Source of the DNA: a virus
Taxonomy: Duplodnaviria; Caudoviricetes
Virus record (IMG/VR): IMGVR_UViG_3300033153_004497
Coordinates: 1-63,827 of that record
Reading direction: 5' to 3' (one strand)
Length of the DNA: 63,827 bases
Both the position numbers and the translations under genes were made by a program. Positions 483-30,377 of this stretch are shown here, piece by piece; the stretch's first letter is position 1; each line of letters starts with the position of its first letter. Under the pieces are notes generated by a model. It saw only the letters and a program-made list of their open reading frames with translations, was not told the DNA's origin and searched no databases.

Positions 483-556
483 GAACCGTTAGAATAGTGG
501 TAGTTCACCTGACTTTCTATCAGATTACGGGGGTTCGATTCCCCCACGGTTCGCCA
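483..556 (+). tRNA. tRNA-Glu (anticodon TTC)
   Basis: Acceptor GAACCGT/ACGGTTC, anticodon loop CT-TTC-TA, T-arm GGGGG-TTCGATT-CCCCC, ends GCCA. Confidence 0.85.
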
Positions 557-6348: not shown

Positions 6349-7550
6349 TTAGGTGATATCAGGATTTGATACTAAGGTCAAATTTTGTTTCCTTCTGTTC
6401 CATACCTCTTTCATGGTTTTAAGGTTCCTGTTCAGTTCCCCAATCGCTTTCCTGACAGCAGCAGGGGTCACTTCGTAGGCAACAGCGACTTCATAAATGT
6501 CCTGTTCGTATTTGACCACAGAATTACCAATACGGATATTCTTCAATAATTCTGATGCTGTGGATTCTCCTGACATTAGTAATTATCCTTCTCTGACTAT
6601 AAGGCTAACCAGATCAACCAACTCTGATTTATTGAAATATGCTGTAACCTGATCTACCAGTTCAGCAGTATCATGTGAGCAAAAGAATTTTCCGTTCAGC
6701 CGAATGTAATATGGTTGGGTTGGTGCATCAGGCATAAATTTGCCAAACGCCCCCAAAAGGTCTACTGCCATGTCTCGCTTGTTCATGTTCCTGTTTCCTT
6801 TTGATATTCAAGTGGGGTATCACAAAGAAATCCGTGTGAGGCATCTGCCCCGTTTGCTTCTCCGAAATAGCCCACGGTTTCACAATCCATATTGATTGCA
6901 TAAAAGTGAGTGTAAGGGTCTTCCCCTTTTCCATCAGACCGATTCAGTTTCGTGTTTGCTTCACGGGTTGCCTGAACCCACTGGTGGAAATCGATATGCT
7001 GAACTATCATTTCAACACACCTCCACAGCGTAGTATCTCCAACCACAAGAACCTTTAAGTATTCCCCGCTTGATCAATCCACGAACACAAGGAGCAGTTG
7101 AATGAAAATCGAAAGTCGCGTAACCAGTTTGGTAGTTACAAGAATAGTCGCTTGTTGAGATATCGAACTTTTCACCAGACTTCTTATCCTTCAAGAACTC
7201 CAAAAGTTCTTCAGTGTTTTTCCCTTTCGGGGCTTTGTAAGAAAATCCCATGATTATATCCCTCCGTTTACGAAACTGTCAGACAGCAACACCAAAGTAT
7301 TATCACATTCTTTCATGCGTCTAATACGAGTTGCTTTATCATCCTTATTAACACAAAGGACATGAAGCCTAATGCCTTCAATTTCTGCTTTGACATCAAG
7401 GGTCAGCTTTTTCTCAGTATACAAATCCATGTATTTACGAACCGTAGTGGTTGAACATCCCCACTTGAGAGCAGCCATTTTAATTTTCATCCCGTTACTC
7501 AGGACTTCCCGTGCTATGTAAATTTTCGTTTTCGTGTCGTTCATTATCAT
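6349..7550 (-). CDS. Five small hypothetical genes (6349-6576, 6583-6786, 6783-about 7010, 7012-7251, 7254-7550)
   Basis: Tightly packed ORFs; 7254-7550 has an HTH-like segment (IKMAALKWGCSTTTVRKY). Confidence 0.55.
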
Positions 7551-21211: not shown

Positions 21212-22153
21212 TCAAGAAATAGACTCTAATAATTTCAAGACTTCGGCATCTGGCATCTGTCCCAAATCCCCAAATGGTTCTGGTGGTTTCAAATGTGTAA
21301 CAGGAATTTTAGTAAAGAATTTTGAGATTCTTTCCCTGCCTTTATCCCCACCAACTCCATTATCAAATATCGTTATAATTTCATCTGCCCCCGCAATTCG
21401 TTTGATCTTGTCTATCTGAACCTGTGTCGTTTGCCCAGACAAAACATTGTTGTAATGAACCCTGATCTTGGCATAATCAAATTGACCTTCAACCAAAATC
21501 ACAGGCTCTTCTAAATCAACATGGTCTTCCCCCATCCACACGCTAGGATTTCTCACCCCGTTGCTAGGATATGAATAATATCTTGGTTCGATATCCTCCA
21601 AAAAAGTTCTTCCATGTACCCCCATCAAAACCCCGTTCCAATCTCGTATCGGAAATAATAATCTACAGCTTTCAAAATCTAACCGTATGTCAATCTGCTC
21701 TGCTAACTCCGCAGAAATTTCCCGCACCTGAATATAGGGATGGGAATATGCGGCGGGGAAAGTGTGAAACCAATGTTCATCGAAGGGAACCAACTCAACA
21801 GGCTTTTTTGCAATCTCTGTTTCGTAGTCAGGAAATTCTGGGTCTTCATCATATTCCTCCCCATCAATAATCTGCATTGCTTTCTTTAAATCTATTTTGT
21901 GCGGAACACTATCCCCGTATTTGAATTTTAATTTCTTATAAACTTCATAGGGGGTTCCCCGTTCTCCACAACTAAAGCAATTATATTTTGACTCCCCGCC
22001 CGTGATAGTCATTCCACTGGAAGGGTGATTGTCCACCTGTCCTTCATGTAGGAACCTAGCAAACAGACATCTACAGGTTGCCCAATTTGAAGTTGTGGTG
22101 GTGACTTCCCCGCCTAACGCAGTGAGGAAATCAACTACCTGTTCTTTTTTCAC
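21212..22153 (-). CDS. DNA primase
   Basis: CHC2-type zinc finger (CLF..H..D..PS..CFSC), FPIRD..GVHGR, TOPRIM motifs VEGQFD and FDN..G. Confidence 0.85.
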   Translation of the reverse strand: MKKEQVVDFLTALGGEVTTTTSNWATCRCLFARFLHEGQVDNHPSSGMTITGGESKYNCFSCGERGTPYEVYKKLKFKYGDSVPHKIDLKKAMQIIDGEEYDEDPEFPDYETEIAKKPVELVPFDEHWFHTFPAAYSHPYIQVREISAELAEQIDIRLDFESCRLLFPIRDWNGVLMGVHGRTFLEDIEPRYYSYPSNGVRNPSVWMGEDHVDLEEPVILVEGQFDYAKIRVHYNNVLSGQTTQVQIDKIKRIAGADEIITIFDNGVGGDKGRERISKFFTKIPVTHLKPPEPFGDLGQMPDAEVLKLLESIS

Positions 22154-22614
22154 TATCCGTATTTGAGTCTGCGATTGCCTTCTTTAATGTCAGTCAGAAC
22201 TTCCATTTCATCAGGACTAAAATATTTATCCAGATCACCCAAAGCAAATTTTGCCAGTTTCAGGGCAAGACCTTCTTCGAAAGCTTCCAACGCGATTACA
22301 ACTTCATCAGTGTCTTTGATGTTGCGTGACTGAACACGGGCAGAAACACCCATAACCAAATCCCCGTTAATCAGATTCACGGATGCTGTCCCATCAAGTT
22401 CAGGGTCAACAAGTCCACGAATTTCTTTTTCAATAGGGTTAAGTTTGTCGGTAAGATTTTTGGTCTTAGCAGCCAGAACAGCGATTTCCTTTTTCAATTT
22501 GAATGCTTCAGGAAGTAGTTTGGTTGCGACCTCAATTCCAGTAGAAGAAGTGACCGCAGATTTTTTACCTGTTGCCAACTTTACTTTTGATTTTGTCTTT
22601 AGCTTAATTGCCAT
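22153..22614 (-). CDS. Hypothetical protein
   Basis: GGGGA RBS before MAIKLK; coupled to primase. Confidence 0.6.
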   Translation of the reverse strand: MAIKLKTKSKVKLATGKKSAVTSSTGIEVATKLLPEAFKLKKEIAVLAAKTKNLTDKLNPIEKEIRGLVDPELDGTASVNLINGDLVMGVSARVQSRNIKDTDEVVIALEAFEEGLALKLAKFALGDLDKYFSPDEMEVLTDIKEGNRRLKYG

Positions 22615-22640: not shown

Positions 22641-23045
22641 AAAAAGCCCCAATTAAGGGGCAGTGATAAATTTGGGTCAAGTGTCTCACCGTGAAAAAGG
22701 AACAGTGGTCTATCCTCTAGCATTTCTTCATCTTGCTTGATGTTGGCTATTGCATCCTCAACGAGATTTTGCGCCCATTCATGATTAGTTACTTTGTCCT
22801 TCTGTATTTACTCCCTTGGGAGTCCGTGTAACTAACTGCTAATCCTCTTGGAAAGAGCCGAATCATCCTTAGCAGTAGAGTCATCGGTTCTGGTTGGCTT
22901 ACCTAATTCGGGCAGTACCCTTATTACCAACCACCTTCTTATCTTCACACCATGTTTGTTTCTTATATTCTCCTGAGTTGACAGGGTTAATCGAATGTTT
23001 CTTAACTTGTTCCTATATAATAGTACATGTAATAATATTTGTCAA
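22641..23045 (-). ncRNA. Promoter-to-terminator structured RNA or leader of about 370 nt
   Basis: TTGACA(23045-23040)-N17-TATTAT; several stems; terminator GCCCC-TTAATT-GGGGC-TTTTT at 22661-22641. Confidence 0.5.
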
Positions 23046-23172
23046 GCCTTTTTATTGAAAAAATTGACCCCTATTGACCCCCCCTATGTGGCAAACCACT
23101 TTTTAGGGTAATTACATGTCCAAACAAAATGTGGCACACCCTGTTGCCCCCTCCTATTTTCAAGATAGGTTT

Positions 23173-24466: not shown

Positions 24467-25090
24467 TTATTTTAATTCTAGGAAATGATTATCTATATGG
24501 GTTCTCAGAACCCCACCGTATTGTTGATTAATGTAATCTAATGTTTCGACATATAGTACTACCTGCCTACCTTGGCTATGACTCTTGAGCACCCAACTTA
24601 ATACATTGGACATTTCCCATGTAGCCACATTGCCCCCCTCAGATTTATCTAACGCGAAGTTTGGAATGCAAATCAATTTGCTCTTGGGTGAAGCCCCTGA
24701 TTTAATTTCCTTGATCAAATCCTGTAGGGTAATAAATCGGGCATCAACAAAGTTACGAGTCAGTACCCCCACCATGCTGTACATCCTGTCTATGAAATTA
24801 TGCTTGCCCTCAATTACTGCCCCGCTAATTCCTTTGGATTGATGAACCCCGAACCCTTCCAGATATTTAACATCCTTGGAAAGCAAAACCCCTTCCGAAG
24901 TATTGTAAATAAAATACTCTGGAATCCCTGCTTGCTCTGCATACATCTCAATATTTTGAACCATACGCCAGTGCTTCTTATATTTAAGAATTCCTGTGGC
25001 GTAATAATCTGCATAGACTGACATGTGATGAACTTCATCTTCCGACAAATCATCAACTTCAACATCTTTGGTCTTCAATTTAATTCCCAT
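24467..25090 (-). CDS. Degenerate DnaC/IstB-like helicase loader
   Basis: Lies between initiator and helicase; AGIPE.F and ARFITLQDLI segments; Walker motifs are eroded. Confidence 0.45.
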   Translation of the reverse strand: MGIKLKTKDVEVDDLSEDEVHHMSVYADYYATGILKYKKHWRMVQNIEMYAEQAGIPEYFIYNTSEGVLLSKDVKYLEGFGVHQSKGISGAVIEGKHNFIDRMYSMVGVLTRNFVDARFITLQDLIKEIKSGASPKSKLICIPNFALDKSEGGNVATWEMSNVLSWVLKSHSQGRQVVLYVETLDYINQQYGGVLRTHIDNHFLELK

Positions 25091-26031: not shown

Positions 26032-26823
26032 TTACTTCTTCTTGGGCTTGTCCTTCTTCGGGGGTTCCACCACTTCATTCAAAATCTCAAGAGCAGCATC
26101 CCCCAACTCCGTGCCTTTGACACTGGTAGCTACACCAGTTTCTTCATCGACAAAAACGATATCATCTATCTTGGGAACCACTCCCGATTTTTCCAGAATC
26201 TTCTTTGCTGCACCATTGGCTTTTCCCAACACCTTATCAATAGCAATGACATCCGCTTTCTTACCTTTCGGTTTCTTGGCATCGGGTTTTGCAGGGGCAT
26301 ACATGGTTAAAAAATCTGCCATGCTTTCTGCAACCACTTTCTTAACTGCGTCTGTTGGCTCACAGAAAATTGCCATGCTCCGAAGAATACGCTTGCCCAA
26401 ACTGGTAAAATCTTTGGACAGTTCCTTGTACAACTTTTCGTAACCTTCTTGGGTTGTGGGGTCTCCGTACCCATCAAGAGTTTTATCAGATGTCAGGACA
26501 AAAGAAATTCGGTTACTGCCAACAGTCAAATGACCACCCTTGATAGGATTGGTGTGCAGCTTTTTATTTACATCTGCTGCTTTGAAATGTTGGTTGAACC
26601 AATTGCTCATGCTGTACAGGTCTATCTTCGCATCAGGAACCAATCTGATTCGCACGAAAAAACCTATGGGTTGTCCCATGTTGTTCACCGAAAAATCCAG
26701 TTTCAAACAATAGCGAACCCTATCTTCAAAAATCACAAAGTAATCTTTGTGTCCTTCACTCCCCTCAACCCTGTCCAGAGTTTTCAGGGTGGTGGTCTTC
26801 TTTACCAGTTTTTCATGTATCAT
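26032..26823 (-). CDS. Hypothetical protein
   Basis: AGGAG RBS; 263-aa ORF within the operon. Confidence 0.65.
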   Translation of the reverse strand: MIHEKLVKKTTTLKTLDRVEGSEGHKDYFVIFEDRVRYCLKLDFSVNNMGQPIGFFVRIRLVPDAKIDLYSMSNWFNQHFKAADVNKKLHTNPIKGGHLTVGSNRISFVLTSDKTLDGYGDPTTQEGYEKLYKELSKDFTSLGKRILRSMAIFCEPTDAVKKVVAESMADFLTMYAPAKPDAKKPKGKKADVIAIDKVLGKANGAAKKILEKSGVVPKIDDIVFVDEETGVATSVKGTELGDAALEILNEVVEPPKKDKPKKK

Positions 26824-26833
26824 GGTCTATCTC

Positions 26834-28054
26834 CTATAGTCCGTGTTTCGTTGATTGTAAAAACTCTATGACCCATTGACTCACTAAAGCCTGTGGGAAA
26901 AATTCTTTGTTGGTGGCTTTGCTTTGTGCCATTCTAAAACCCATCGTTTTCATGCAGTTGTTAAAACCCACACTTCCCTCCTGAGTTGTTATCCCAAAGC
27001 TTTGCAAAAGCTGAATAACAAAACCCTCCAACTGATCTTTGTGCAATCCCCGCAATTTAATTAATTGATCTATCCTGCCTGATCTATAAAGTTCTGTGGG
27101 TAATGCTTCCAGATTATTACAGGTCATCACAACATAAACCTTACTCGTTTTATATTGTAACCACCAAAGTAGTTTAGACAATAATCTTTGGCTTGTGTCA
27201 TTCTCGCTATTGTCTATAAAAAGTTTTTCCACTTCATCGAACAAAACTATGCACGGACTTTCTTTATCCAAAGTCGAGAGTGCTTGATTCAAATGATGCT
27301 CTGCTTCTCCCTGCCATTTCGATAGCATGGAATTAACATCCAACAAAAATAAAGATAGCCCCCAACCCCGTGCTATGTATTTTGCAAATTCGGTTTTACC
27401 TGTTCCTGCATCCCCATACATCAGAACACCTTTCGGAACTAACCTGTGATCGACATCCGCAAACATGTAGGGTTTATTTTCATCTACCCATTTAGATAAA
27501 TTCTGTTCACCCGTACCCGTTCCTTTTTGTTCAAAATAGAATGGGGTCTCAGGGTCAACTTTTGTAATCCCTGTTTGATGGATGAATAATCTTTCTTTGG
27601 TCTTGCGAATACTCTCCACAGAAATCTGATCGTAATAGATCGAGCAAAGGGAAAGTGTTTGTTTGATATGTTGAACTGTTAAACCTTTCAGATAGGCAAC
27701 AGATTCTTTCAGAATTTTCTTTGGAATTTCTCCCTCAAGCATTTGGTGAATTGTTTTTTCATCTGGGACAAGTTCCCCACATTCCATCAGTCGGGGGTCT
27801 GGTTCAGGATTGACAAAGATAACTGAGTATTCATTTTGCTCAGCATCATTATAAAGATCGTTGAGTGTGTTTTCTTTTGGAGTATCGGGGGAGTAATAAA
27901 GGGGAGTGCGTTCATCAATTTGAACATGCTTGGAACCTAAAGACAAAACATCATGATCAGGGAACATGCCCCGAAGCACAAAGTCAATATGGAGTAGGTC
28001 AGTTGACCTAACTGATATGAGTGGTATCAAACCACCCACTGCCTTTTTAATCAT
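26834..28054 (-). CDS. AAA+ ATPase
   Basis: GDAGTGKT, VLFDEVEK, TCN, ELYRSGRID. Confidence 0.9.
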   Translation of the reverse strand: MIKKAVGGLIPLISVRSTDLLHIDFVLRGMFPDHDVLSLGSKHVQIDERTPLYYSPDTPKENTLNDLYNDAEQNEYSVIFVNPEPDPRLMECGELVPDEKTIHQMLEGEIPKKILKESVAYLKGLTVQHIKQTLSLCSIYYDQISVESIRKTKERLFIHQTGITKVDPETPFYFEQKGTGTGEQNLSKWVDENKPYMFADVDHRLVPKGVLMYGDAGTGKTEFAKYIARGWGLSLFLLDVNSMLSKWQGEAEHHLNQALSTLDKESPCIVLFDEVEKLFIDNSENDTSQRLLSKLLWWLQYKTSKVYVVMTCNNLEALPTELYRSGRIDQLIKLRGLHKDQLEGFVIQLLQSFGITTQEGSVGFNNCMKTMGFRMAQSKATNKEFFPQALVSQWVIEFLQSTKHGL

Positions 28055-28089
28055 TAACTATCCCCTAGTTATTTGTAGCTTACTGCTTG

Positions 28090-28142
28090 TGCAGCAAAAA
28101 GTAAAACGCTCCCTTACCAATAGATAGGAATTTAACGGGAGC
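28090..28142 (-). terminator. Terminator or attenuator hairpin in the leader of the replication operon
   Basis: GCTCCC(G)TTA...TAAGGGAGC followed by GTTTTACTTTTT. Confidence 0.55.
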
Positions 28143-28153
28143 ACCTGCCCTAC

Positions 28154-29010
28154 TTAACTGTCTAGCTTTCGAATCATACCCTCAGTGAATACAAGTTTAG
28201 GATTCGGACTTTCGTGTGTATGGTTCTCAGGATGCACTTCCTTCAACCAAACCATATTGTGTCCTGCTAATTTGTCGAAGCTTTCAATGCGGAAGGTTCC
28301 ACAAATCCTACCTTCTACTATTTCTCCAACTTTAAAATTTTCGAATGACATCTGTTCTCTCCTAAATTTAGATGATGTACTGCAAGCCTACGCTAGTTTA
28401 AAATATTTGTCAAGCAGAATATCTTTTAATTGCTGCTTCAAATTTTTGCTTGGTATCAAACATACGATTGTATTTGTCATCCCAAATAGGATTTCCGAAA
28501 CAGTCCCGTGCCTTCATATCAAAATAATCATTTCCATTGTGGTCTATATCCTGATCAAACCACAAAGTTATTTCACCTTGCTTCCTGACTATTTTGATTT
28601 CAGTTCTATTCATTACCGTATCCAAGTTCCTTCGTTGTCGGTAGTCAGTACCATCTTTTTTTCTTTATACCCCTCAGCTTTGACGTTGACAACTGAAGAC
28701 CAGAACCATGTACCCAATTGACCTTTCATTTCTGAATAACAAGGTTTGAAGTCCCACGATACTTTCAGGTTTTTGATTTCAGGGTTTGCCTTTTTAATCA
28801 TTCGTTTGGCAATCGCTAGTGTTGGTTTTTTCATTTCGTTTTTCCTTTGTAAATTTCTTCATTCCAATGTTGAGCAATTGCTTTTGCAACCTCTTCAGTT
28901 GGAAGTTCTTTATTCAGAACCTTCAGAACAGTGTTGTCATTCTTAACTAAGATTACACGATGACCTTCTTTGTTGCTGTCGGTATATGCTTTGTGTTGGT
29001 TCAGTTTCAT
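28154..29010 (-). CDS. Four small early genes (28154-28351, 28410-28625, 28613-28834, 28831-29010)
   Basis: Coupled ORFs behind a TTGACA/TATACT promoter at about 29044-29071; 28831-29010 (59 aa, MKLNQHK...) was read manually. Confidence 0.6.
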
Positions 29011-29107
29011 TTCGTATCGTGTTTGTTTTGTTTAAGTCCTATAAGTATAGCACCCTCTTCGTATTTGTCAATGCAATATCATTAATTAAATCAATTATTT
29101 ATGTGAC

Positions 29108-29172
29108 TTATTCCCCTTTTTATTTGTCAAAAGACCTTGCTTTTATTTGTCAAGGTGCTATACTTATAGTAT
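29108..29172 (+). promoter_or_regulatory. Early promoter block, inverted copy of 8465-8529
   Basis: 65-bp identity; divergent from the promoter at about 29044-29071. Confidence 0.8.
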
Positions 29173-29197
29173 GAAAACAAACAAAGAGACAAACAAC

Positions 29198-29329
29198 ATG
29201 AACGAATTAATGACAAGCACTACAGTAGGAACCGTAACACTGACCCACGAAACTTCAGGTAAGGAAGTAGTAGTAACAAACACTCCTTCGGTAGTTTCAA
29301 AATACGAAGCTCTGGGTTACAAGGCTTAA
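29198..29329 (+). CDS. 43-aa peptide, paralog of 8309-8440
   Basis: Translates MNELMTSTTVGTVTLTHETSGKEVVVTNTPSVVSKYEALGYKA. Confidence 0.75.
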   Translation: MNELMTSTTVGTVTLTHETSGKEVVVTNTPSVVSKYEALGYKA

Positions 29330-29335
29330 TCCACT

Positions 29336-29356
29336 AGCCCCTTCGGGGGCTTTTTT
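29336..29356 (+). terminator. Intrinsic terminator
   Basis: AGCCCC-TTCG-GGGGCT-TTTTT. Confidence 0.85.
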
Positions 29357-29375
29357 AATTCCAACGAGACACGAA

Positions 29376-29633
29376 ATGAATAGAGCAAAGAGAATTACAA
29401 CAGGTGAATATTCCTACAGGGGATATGAACTTGCCGTTGATGCAACGGGTTGGATGATCAAACTTGAAGGAATGAATCACTACCCTTGGGATGCAGAATC
29501 CAAAAAAGATGCAATGGGATTCATCGATCATATGATTGACGATGATGAAACCAAAGCCCACCTGAAAAAAACCGAAGACCTCTCTGATGAAGAACTCATG
29601 AAAGTTGATGGTTGGGCATGGTTGGATAGATAA
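29376..29633 (+). CDS. Early hypothetical protein
   Basis: ATG ORF followed by the 23-nt element and a terminator at 29665-29689. Confidence 0.65.
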   Translation: MNRAKRITTGEYSYRGYELAVDATGWMIKLEGMNHYPWDAESKKDAMGFIDHMIDDDETKAHLKKTEDLSDEELMKVDGWAWLDR

Positions 29634-29727
29634 AGAATTTACAGTTAAATCGTGTGTTGTTTTTGGGAGTCCTTGAGGCTCCCTTTTTTATGATTGGAAT
29701 TTTTTATTCCATTATTCCACAAGGCAT

Positions 29728-29840
29728 AAAAAAGCCCCATCAACAAGGGCAGGTTGCTAATGAGGCTCCACCCATTCACAGGGGGATAGTTCTGTGAGGC
29801 ATAGGCAGAATCATTATCACATGGTTTTTCTTGTTGTCAA
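29728..29840 (-). ncRNA. Candidate sRNA-2 (about 79 nt) with its own promoter and terminator
   Basis: TTGACA(29840-29835)-N16-GATAAT; hairpin UCACAG-[AACUAUCCCC]-CUGUGA; 14-bp terminator stem with loop CCUGCCC and a U-run. Confidence 0.7.
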
Positions 29841-29868
29841 CTGTTGTGGGGGGTTGTAGTTAGCCAAC

Positions 29869-29984
29869 AAAAAAGCCCCAACATTTCTGAAGGGGCTTAG
29901 ATGTCACACGACAAACAATCAAAACACGAATAGGTGACAGCAATCACCTGAACTTAATTATAACTTACGGGCTTCATTTGTCAA
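29869..29984 (-). ncRNA. Candidate sRNA-1 (about 82 nt) with its own promoter and terminator
   Basis: TTGACA(29984-29979)-N16-TATAAT; 5' hairpin AGGUGA/UCACCU; G/U-rich middle; AAGCCCC/GGGGCUU terminator with U-run. Confidence 0.7.
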
Positions 29985-30377
29985 TCACTTACTGAGCAGT
30001 TGTTCATTGATTTGATCGAACTGTTTATTCAATTTTCGGATATCGTTTTTTAACTTTTGGACATACTCCGCACTAGGTTGTTTTTTTTGTTGCTCCCGAA
30101 ATAATCTGTCTTCAAGAATGTCCAACCGAATCTGAGTCAGGGCAAGAGCGTTCTGCAAATCTGCTACTTGTCGAGAGTCATCAATAGATTTGAATTGCCC
30201 CGCAACATCCATAGACATTGTATTAAATTCTGCACTGACTTCAACCGTGTGGGCATGTCGCTCATCAATTTGAAAGACCGCACCAGTAACCAGAATTAAA
30301 ATTGTAACTCCCCCAGATATCATAGCAATCACCTTTGATACAGTTGTGAATTTTCCATCTTCCGTTTTGATCTTCAT
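29985..30377 (-). CDS. Membrane-anchored coiled-coil protein
   Basis: One transmembrane segment followed by a coiled coil; last gene of the late operon. Confidence 0.6.
   Translation of the reverse strand: MKIKTEDGKFTTVSKVIAMISGGVTILILVTGAVFQIDERHAHTVEVSAEFNTMSMDVAGQFKSIDDSRQVADLQNALALTQIRLDILEDRLFREQQKKQPSAEYVQKLKNDIRKLNKQFDQINEQLLSK

Follow-up and report, generated by a model that had tools for sequence, protein, structure and literature searches.

The junction between the structural and replication gene blocks of an uncultured tailed phage raises the question of whether a small RNA (sRNA) encoded there controls the replication operon and, if so, whether such control would serve immunity or lytic growth. 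The DNA analysed, hereafter the window, is the whole 63,827-base virus record whose first lines are given above; its completeness is estimated at 72%, and nearly all of its genes lie on the minus strand. A first-pass annotation of these letters had proposed that an RNA of about 79 nt, here called unit 2, pairs through two loops with both ends of the leader of the operon that begins with an AAA+ ATPase gene (the AAA gene), as an RNA repressor unrelated to the known ones or a lysis–lysogeny switch. Our analysis suggests that unit 2 and the adjacent unit 1 are a real pair of antisense sRNA genes, probably functional, with the replication operon as their target. The reading we prefer, and consider fairly probable, is that unit 2 is a trans-encoded antisense sRNA acting with unit 1 on this operon, most likely in the control of dosage or timing. 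The gene anatomy, fold, complementarity, conservation and covariation described below were all read from the window and its relatives.

Unit 2 has the anatomy of an independent non-coding transcription unit with a predicted promoter and a predicted Rho-independent terminator (Table 1), in agreement with the first-pass annotation. The promoter matches 11 of 12 consensus positions, carries an extended −10 element and is kept in all of the sRNA-bearing relatives (6/6). The 3′ end is formed by a GC-rich hairpin followed by U6, which the terminator scan lists at 29750-29734. The predicted fold consists of two hairpins with almost no single-stranded linker between them, and its minimum free energy of −33.5 kcal/mol (z = −4.5) was equalled by none of 200 shuffled sequences. 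An open reading frame (ORF) of 44 codons (29645-29779) overlaps the unit; a coding reading of this frame is unlikely because its GTG start is not conserved, being GAG in the complete related genome G001.

Each loop was claimed to be the perfect complement of one segment of the AAA leader, and both complements proved exact, over 10 nt for loop A at the ribosome-binding site (RBS) of the AAA gene (site 1) and over 9 nt for loop B with its closing pair at a segment on the 5′ side of a terminator-like hairpin (site 2). These exact complements are each unique in the window outside the sRNA gene itself. The coordinates also bear out the order expected for simultaneous pairing, as the two sites in the leader run antiparallel to the two loops in unit 2. 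Site 1 ends 1 nt from the ATG of the AAA gene (28054) and lies inside a local hairpin (28071-28055) that exposes GGGGA in its loop, while site 2 begins 2 nt past the stop codon of an ORF of 65 amino acids (aa; 28154-28351). With the opening costs deducted, pairing is predicted to yield about −12 kcal/mol for site 1 and −10.5 kcal/mol for site 2. The unit 2 gene lies 1.7 kb from its target on the same strand, with two opposite-strand genes between them. The leader hairpin is conserved in 10/10 leaders; a simple terminator scan skipped it because its loop is longer than 8 nt.

Table 1. Positions in the window of the two sRNA units, their pairing segments and their proposed targets (SD, Shine–Dalgarno sequence)
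Feature	Position	Strand	Description
Promoter of sRNA unit 2	29813..29840	minus	TTGACA from 29840, 16-nt spacer, TG-n-GATAAT (TGtGATAAT) to 29813
sRNA unit 2	about 29806..29728	minus	~79 nt, two hairpins, U-tail
Loop A	29782..29791	minus	AACUAUCCCC; unpaired probability 0.99; invariant in 7/7 sequences
Loop B	29753-29747	minus	CCUGCCC; with flanking A and U, ACCUGCCCU (29754-29746)
Site 1	28056..28065	minus	GGGGAUAGUU; SD and spacer of the AAA gene; exact complement of loop A
Site 2	28143..28151	minus	AGGGCAGGU; exact 9-nt complement of loop B; abuts the 5′ side of the leader hairpin
Terminator-like leader hairpin and U-rich tract	28095..28142	minus	hairpin 28142-28108, −12.3 kcal/mol, then GUUUUACUUUUU
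Leader promoter, −35 element	28405..28413	minus	TTGACAAAT; in 6/10 leaders immediately followed by site 2 or the hairpin, with no 65-aa ORF between
AAA+ ATPase gene	26834..28054	minus	406 aa; PF00004, E = 7e-26; first cistron of the replication operon
sRNA unit 1	29869..29984	minus	just upstream of unit 2; 5′ hairpin, UG-rich single strand, terminator
Proposed unit 1 target	26833..26858	minus	last AAA codons into the first two SD bases of gene 26032-26823

As short complements are frequent, we asked how often two of them would fall together. When both loops were permuted, 4 of 20,000 trials placed both complements at most 300 nt apart and in the right order, and after allowing for roughly a dozen equivalent probe windows the P value of the co-localisation is about 0.002. 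From the window alone, the two-loop co-localisation is moderately unlikely by chance; comparison with relatives, described next, weighs more heavily. Single 9-mer matches are uninformative because an 84-nt RNA has about 70 complementary matches of at least 9 nt in the window. Ranked among start regions for pairing with loop A, the AAA RBS comes first of 110 in the window and second of 160 in G001.

The relatives used for comparison are 10 metagenome loci encoding AAA proteins 82–89% identical to that of the window; G001, whose 89,323 bases include terminal repeats, and locus L021 are one and the same contig. Every relative with enough upstream DNA to include unit 2 has it, six in all (G001, L016, L020, L022, L023 and L025). 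Counting the window, these give four distinct sequences, and the same fold is predicted in 7/7. No change occurs at any of the 10 loop A positions or in the CUGCCC core of loop B, in contrast to the stems, where both partners have changed, with pairing kept, in 2 of 26 consensus pairs; this covariation comes from four distinct sequences and has low statistical power. The loop B region reads ACUGCCCU in the relatives. The covariance model of unit 2 found one copy per genome and no extra or distant copies across 28 sources, and it was matched weakly by unit 1 (E = 0.0065–0.038), probably via the terminator.

Site 1 is kept in 11/11 related leaders, including that of L023, which is heavily diverged over the preceding 60 nt. 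Seven of 10 leaders have site 2, as AGGGCAG(G)U and always at −96 or −97 from the ATG: it comes after the 65-aa ORF in the window and L019, and directly after the TTGACAAAT...TAAGCT promoter in L016, L017, L018, L020 and L025, where it forms the very 5′ end of the predicted leader RNA. Beside the invariant 7-bp core (CUGCCCU/AGGGCAG), the neighbouring pair is C-G in the window and A-U in L016, L020 and L025, such that cognate partners form 9 and 8 bp and swapped partners 7 bp only. L018 carries the window-type site 2, and its contig does not cover the sRNA. In L023, AGGGCAG is absent from the 4 kb available, and a second exact copy of GGGGAUAGUU stands at the site-2 position, directly 5′ of the hairpin; the identity between this copy and the one at the RBS begins and ends exactly at the 10 nt complementary to loop A. 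It is hard to explain such a swap otherwise than by selection for sRNA binding next to the hairpin. The covariation of loops and targets proposed as a check of the first-pass annotation was therefore seen, as one C-G to A-U switch and a second loop-A site in L023, together with site 1 in every leader. The two-site claim itself stands for four of the seven sRNA/leader pairs (window, L016, L020 and L025) and fails for the other three, as G001 and L022 are without site 2 and L023 has two loop-A sites. On these comparisons, unit 2 looks like a genuine structured RNA, and its loops look like functional pairing surfaces for the replication-operon leader.

Unit 1 matches the same operon at a second place. 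Its promoter (29984-29957) fits the consensus at 12/12 positions, and the unit is conserved in relatives, with 4 of 18 pairs compensatory. About 22–25 nt of its single strand, interrupted by small bulges, are complementary to the proposed target, which is the top start region both in the window (−25.1 kcal/mol, tied, 1/110) and in G001 (−29.5 kcal/mol, 1/160). A blastn-short search of G001 aligned the same target over 26 nt (88%, E = 0.014) as one of two tied best non-self alignments. Two positions show trans-compensatory changes: in G001, target CAAUCAUC is found with sRNA GAUGAUUG; the window and L020 have CAAUCAA in the target and UUGAUUG in the sRNA, and L016/L025 have CAAAC and GUUUG, respectively. 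An energy matrix of the unit 1 duplexes did not separate cognate from non-cognate partners, and the argument for this RNA consists of rank, position and the two compensatory positions. We regard antisense pairing of unit 1 with the AAA 3′ end and the RBS of the second gene as a lead, which independently raises the odds that the junction encodes antisense regulators of the replication operon.

Several observations weigh against the proposed role of unit 2. Loop A alone is not exceptional and behaves like an anti-SD sequence, as the first-pass annotation had itself cautioned: 6% of shuffled C-rich loops in the window and 1% in G001 reach its best start-region energy. Comparing the loops with start regions under shuffled controls therefore spoke for the co-localisation of the two loops and not for loop A by itself. 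GGGGAU is also the commonest RBS hexamer in G001, at 16 of 161 crude gene calls. In the predicted free leader, site 2 is mostly paired with the U-tract (unpaired probability 2.5e-4, opening cost 5.1 kcal/mol). The G001-type leader (G001/L021 and L022) has a promoter that runs straight into the hairpin with no site 2, and keeps loop B all the same; two-site pairing is thus not essential, and loop B may be conserved for its role as a terminator loop. All relatives are close, which limits the weight of loop and site 1 invariance, each covariation is a single evolutionary event, and the distant AAA homologues L044–L048 have no convincing analogous RBS complement nearby. A search for RNA runs that contain this stretch returned none. 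Repression, finally, is the sign of regulation that we infer; its direction is fixed by no computation here.

If unit 2 acts as an antisense sRNA on the operon, its expression, its pairing in vivo and its biological role may be pictured as follows. The RNA would be made from its own strong sigma-70-type promoter and end at its own terminator. Loop A would kiss the loop of the RBS hairpin and continue through UAGUU until a single base short of the AUG, and its occupation of the AAA SD and spacer would block 30S binding or initiation. Loop B, on an 8–9-nt site at or near the 5′ end of the leader, would provide a second contact that speeds or stabilises binding, and its pairing beside an attenuator-like hairpin may alter termination; since the predicted free leader has site 2 paired with the U-tract, sRNA binding could change the outcome there. 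Unit 1 would bind a stretch that includes the AAA stop codon and the RBS of the following gene, lowering translation of that cistron, and the two units would together act as an RNA module under which the replication genes are translated less.

What such a module would be used for depends on the lifestyle of the phage. Neither the window nor the complete G001 genome contains a match to PF00589, PF00239, PF01381, PF02195 or PF01656 (tyrosine and serine recombinases, helix-turn-helix family HTH_3, ParB and ParA/CbiA), which is no proof of a virulent lifestyle. Among 185,579 species genomes, no related prophage or element was found by protein, and 0 of 98 matches to a 16-mer sRNA motif were homologous. 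The missing HTH_3 match agrees with the reported lack of a recognisable CI gene. The immunity or lysis–lysogeny role is not supported by gene content, and of the claim that unit 2 is an unrelated RNA repressor serving immunity, what survives is that it is unrelated to C4 and CI in Rfam searches and that its pairing with the leader is supported. Because recombinase, HTH_3 and ParA/B matches are absent from the window and G001 and no related element occurs in the species genomes, we favour dosage or timing control in lytic growth, that is early shut-off, as the most likely use, with copy control or immunity in an extrachromosomal carrier state less likely.

The best-surviving alternative takes that carrier state as its starting point: in a temperate but non-integrating phage, both sRNAs would silence the replication operon of resident and superinfecting genomes as a form of RNA immunity or copy control. 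It shares all of the pairing evidence set out above, it fits the lack of a CI-like HTH_3 protein, and the two promoters (11/12 and 12/12) are so near to perfect host-type sequences that they would fire without phage factors. Moreover, the nearest cultured phages, which infect Vibrio, have genomes of ~80 kb and share the gene order, include VHS1, which one report describes as forming extrachromosomal lysogens that tolerate superinfection (PMC3148565). The kinship with VHS1 (JF713456.1) is distant, however, as the AAA proteins are just 33–34% identical and its leader and intergenic regions are unrelated in sequence. The complete G001 genome is without recombinase, ParB and ParA/CbiA matches, the species genomes held no related element by protein or sRNA motif, and no result here points to this phage persisting in a cell; we therefore think this explanation unlikely. 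VHS1 does have a 575-nt non-coding gap after its AAA gene, in which (~6487-6600) a TTGACA-17-TAAAAT promoter can be recognised by eye, with a GC hairpin and U-run about 70 nt past it; this may be an unrelated small RNA unit.

We judge it improbable that unit 2 works in the opposite direction, as an activator or antiterminator whose pairing at site 2 frees the U-tract, remodels the attenuator or protects the mRNA 5′ end and so increases read-through or stability. The position of the upstream site suits this explanation, since site 2 (or the loop-A site that replaces it in L023) is always directly 5′ of the hairpin, lies at most about 10 nt from the predicted transcription start in the five ORF-less leaders that have it, and is predicted to pair with the U-tract and so lengthen the hairpin in the free leader. 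A promoter followed immediately by a terminator-like hairpin likewise implies regulated read-through. Loop A nevertheless masks the SD and reaches within 1 nt of the AUG, an arrangement that as a rule prevents initiation, the hairpin of the G001-type leader stands without the 5′ site, the folds that we inspected showed no antiterminator structure consistent across leader variants, and termination at the hairpin is putative.

It is very improbable that the complementarity is coincidental or a by-product, with the unit being a real sRNA or a promoter–terminator insulator with another job (host targets, a sponge or the end of the late operon), loop A merely anti-SD-like and site 2 conserved as an extended terminator stem or transcription start region: C-rich loops do often score well against RBSs, GGGGAUA is a common RBS type in this phage, background complements are numerous, AAGUAGGG pairs with the U-tract in the leader fold and the relatives are close, but this would leave unexplained the matched C-G to A-U switch, the exact 10-nt loop-A complement at the site-2 position of L023 and a neighbouring unit 1 that matches the same operon with compensatory changes, and it runs against the rarity of the two-loop co-localisation among permutations.

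Pairing of one RNA with two sites of a leader has well-known precedents. The C4 RNA of phages P1 and P7 pairs through its a′ and b′ segments with two sites of its target leader, and is cut from the transcript of the operon that it controls. Like C4 (~77–80 nt), unit 2 is a phage RNA with two short segments that match two leader sites, one of them at an RBS. Unlike C4, which is processed from its operon and targets an antirepressor, unit 2 has its own promoter and terminator 1.7 kb from its target, and that target is the replication operon; it also has no covariance-model match, and no lysogeny genes were found in the window or G001. Searched against Rfam at gathering score, the whole window returned a tRNA only, and the 401 nt at 29650-30050 searched at E up to 10 gave 12 weak matches, terminator- or miRNA-like, none of them C4 and all far below gathering scores. 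The search for C4 and CI thus found no match to unit 2, which is unrelated to them by sequence and structure model. With no model match, an independent gene, another target and no temperate module found, unit 2 is not a member of the C4 family. According to a statement in PMC8198154, which cites Citron and Schuster 1990, ant expression is not fully repressed in P1 without C4. Full-text literature searches returned nothing describing the RNA reported here.

The CI RNA of satellite phage P4 has two complementary sites beside terminators in the leader of the replication (alpha) operon, and by pairing there it holds the replication genes silent; it is itself cut out of that leader RNA, and it works in the integrated prophage through premature termination. 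Site 2 resembles this arrangement in lying directly 5′ of a terminator-like hairpin in a replication leader, but unit 2 is an independent gene, one of its sites is the RBS itself, no integrase was found and termination is putative. The closest match to the predicted geometry is the two-loop kissing complex of OxyS and fhlA in E. coli, in which two sRNA loops pair with two separated mRNA sites, one overlapping the SD. In contrast to OxyS, a host stress sRNA whose second site lies in the coding region, the second site of unit 2 is upstream, at the 5′ end of the leader, and the two RNAs have no sequence relation. Plasmid systems such as R1 CopA/CopT, pT181 and pIP501 use constitutive loop-pairing RNAs to limit rep expression via RBS occlusion or an induced leader terminator. 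These countertranscripts are cis-encoded and fully complementary, whereas the units described here are 1.7–3 kb away and would pair over 8–10 nt per loop. A cis-encoded countertranscript (CopA, RNAI, pT181 RNAI or P22 sar) was ruled out, as unit 2 is on the same strand as its target and its complementarity is limited to the loops. In lambda, PreS (LPR1) is described in a preprint as a phage base-pairing sRNA that influences lytic-cycle replication, and as Hfq-dependent and acting on the host mRNAs dnaN and alaS (bioRxiv 10.1101/2024.10.31.621285). Unlike PreS, unit 2 is nearly without a single-stranded linker, and the genes of the phage itself are its best targets. We classify unit 2 as a new RNA family with a predicted mechanism of known type.

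To our knowledge, few phage-encoded trans-acting sRNAs with phage targets are known, and the classic two-site cases, P1/P7 C4 and P4 CI, both belong to temperate elements and are immunity RNAs released by processing. In the present case, an RNA family unrelated to these appears to use a C4/CI-like two-loop logic as an independent gene, in tandem with a second sRNA directed at the same operon and with no recognisable lysogeny module. If confirmed, this would mean that antisense control of replication genes arose independently in tailed phages, and it would supply a compact, sequence-programmable pair of regulator and leader. The site swap in L023 and the matched base changes make the hypothesis directly testable.

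As the first-pass annotation had noted, loop A has shorter matches at other RBSs: one of 9 nt (13945-13937) and, over the 7 nt GGGGAUA, one each in front of dnaB and gene 22153-22614. We set these aside as evidence for a regulon because GGGGAUA is a common RBS motif here. From crude gene calls, GGGGAU is more frequent in early than in late genes, both in G001 (15/93 versus 1/41, P = 0.023) and in the window (6/42 versus 0/38, P = 0.027), and motifs of the GGGGAUA type precede about 12–16% of early or replication genes and almost no late genes. GAGGU is the RBS type favoured by the structural (late) genes of the window and G001. A doubtful but wider proposal is that the tandem sRNAs form an RNA-only module, without a protein repressor, that clamps both ends of the AAA cistron, and that loop A (..UAUCCCC) also reads the class-specific GGGGAUA. 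If this is true, one small RNA would switch off translation of a whole temporal gene class, as an RNA-based early shut-off in a virulent phage or as immunity and copy control in a carrier state that is extrachromosomal and integrase-less, like the one described for VHS1. Confirmation would allow a test of whether phages time or silence an early gene class via a shared RBS motif.

The phage that carries unit 2 is an uncultured tailed siphovirus of ~89 kb and marine type. Its structural block (33–64 kb of the window) encodes portal, head, tape-measure and tail proteins. The replication block (19–28 kb) encodes the AAA+ ATPase, a 263-aa protein, an HTH_36 initiator, a 207-aa protein, a DnaB-like helicase, a primase and a second helicase, the first five in this operon order; the 263-aa and 207-aa proteins have no family assigned. 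The label 'loader' given earlier to 24467-25090 is unconfirmed, as this gene has no PHROG match. A DNA search found no cultured relatives of the window. By protein, the nearest cultured phages are the Vibrio siphoviruses of ~80 kb, with AAA identities of 33–36% and the same order of AAA, DnaB and primase genes. Among viral contigs searched by protein, by alignment and with three DNA patterns, G001 was the sole true relative. A search with a wider alignment returned 80 loci, among which only L044–L048 are full-length homologues (29–34% identity), and AAA homologues of intermediate identity, 43–66%, also exist (P0012–P0028), several of them encoded on contigs of 78–95 kb.

The leader promoter element and the ORF downstream of it have features of their own. 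TTGACAAAT occurs at 14 sites in the window against 1.8 expected, a number reached in 0 of 100 shuffles (examples are 28405-28413, 29063-29071, 29122-29130, 29145-29153 and 29976-29984), and it appears to be an extended −35 element of the host-type promoters of this phage. The 65-aa ORF (28154-28351, minus strand), which lies between the leader promoter and site 2, is found only in the window, L019 and L023, and is absent in L016, L017, L018, L020, L021/G001, L022 and L025. Four DNA runs confirm relatives without it, with joints from 28155/28156 to 28383/28388; it is a small insertion–deletion gene of no known family.

Three further features of the window were noted. The tRNA-Glu (UUC) gene at 483-556 (plus strand) is the only Rfam or ARAGORN match. 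A 49-nt imperfect inverted repeat (29006-29054 and 29154-29202, 71% complementary) provides two divergently transcribed units of small genes with −10/start regions that are almost the same (GGTGCTATACTTATAG) and with 5′ leaders rich in CA and poor in SD sequences; the small proteins of these units have no Pfam or PHROG family, and the repeat may be an operator or shared regulatory site. Upstream of gene 22153-22614, about 390 nt of the minus strand (~22641-23045) separate a TTGACAAAT promoter (23045-23037) from a terminator (~22665-22641); no minus-strand ORF of at least 40 aa occurs in 22690-23172 and no Rfam match in the region, which may hold a further non-coding RNA or act as a long attenuated leader.

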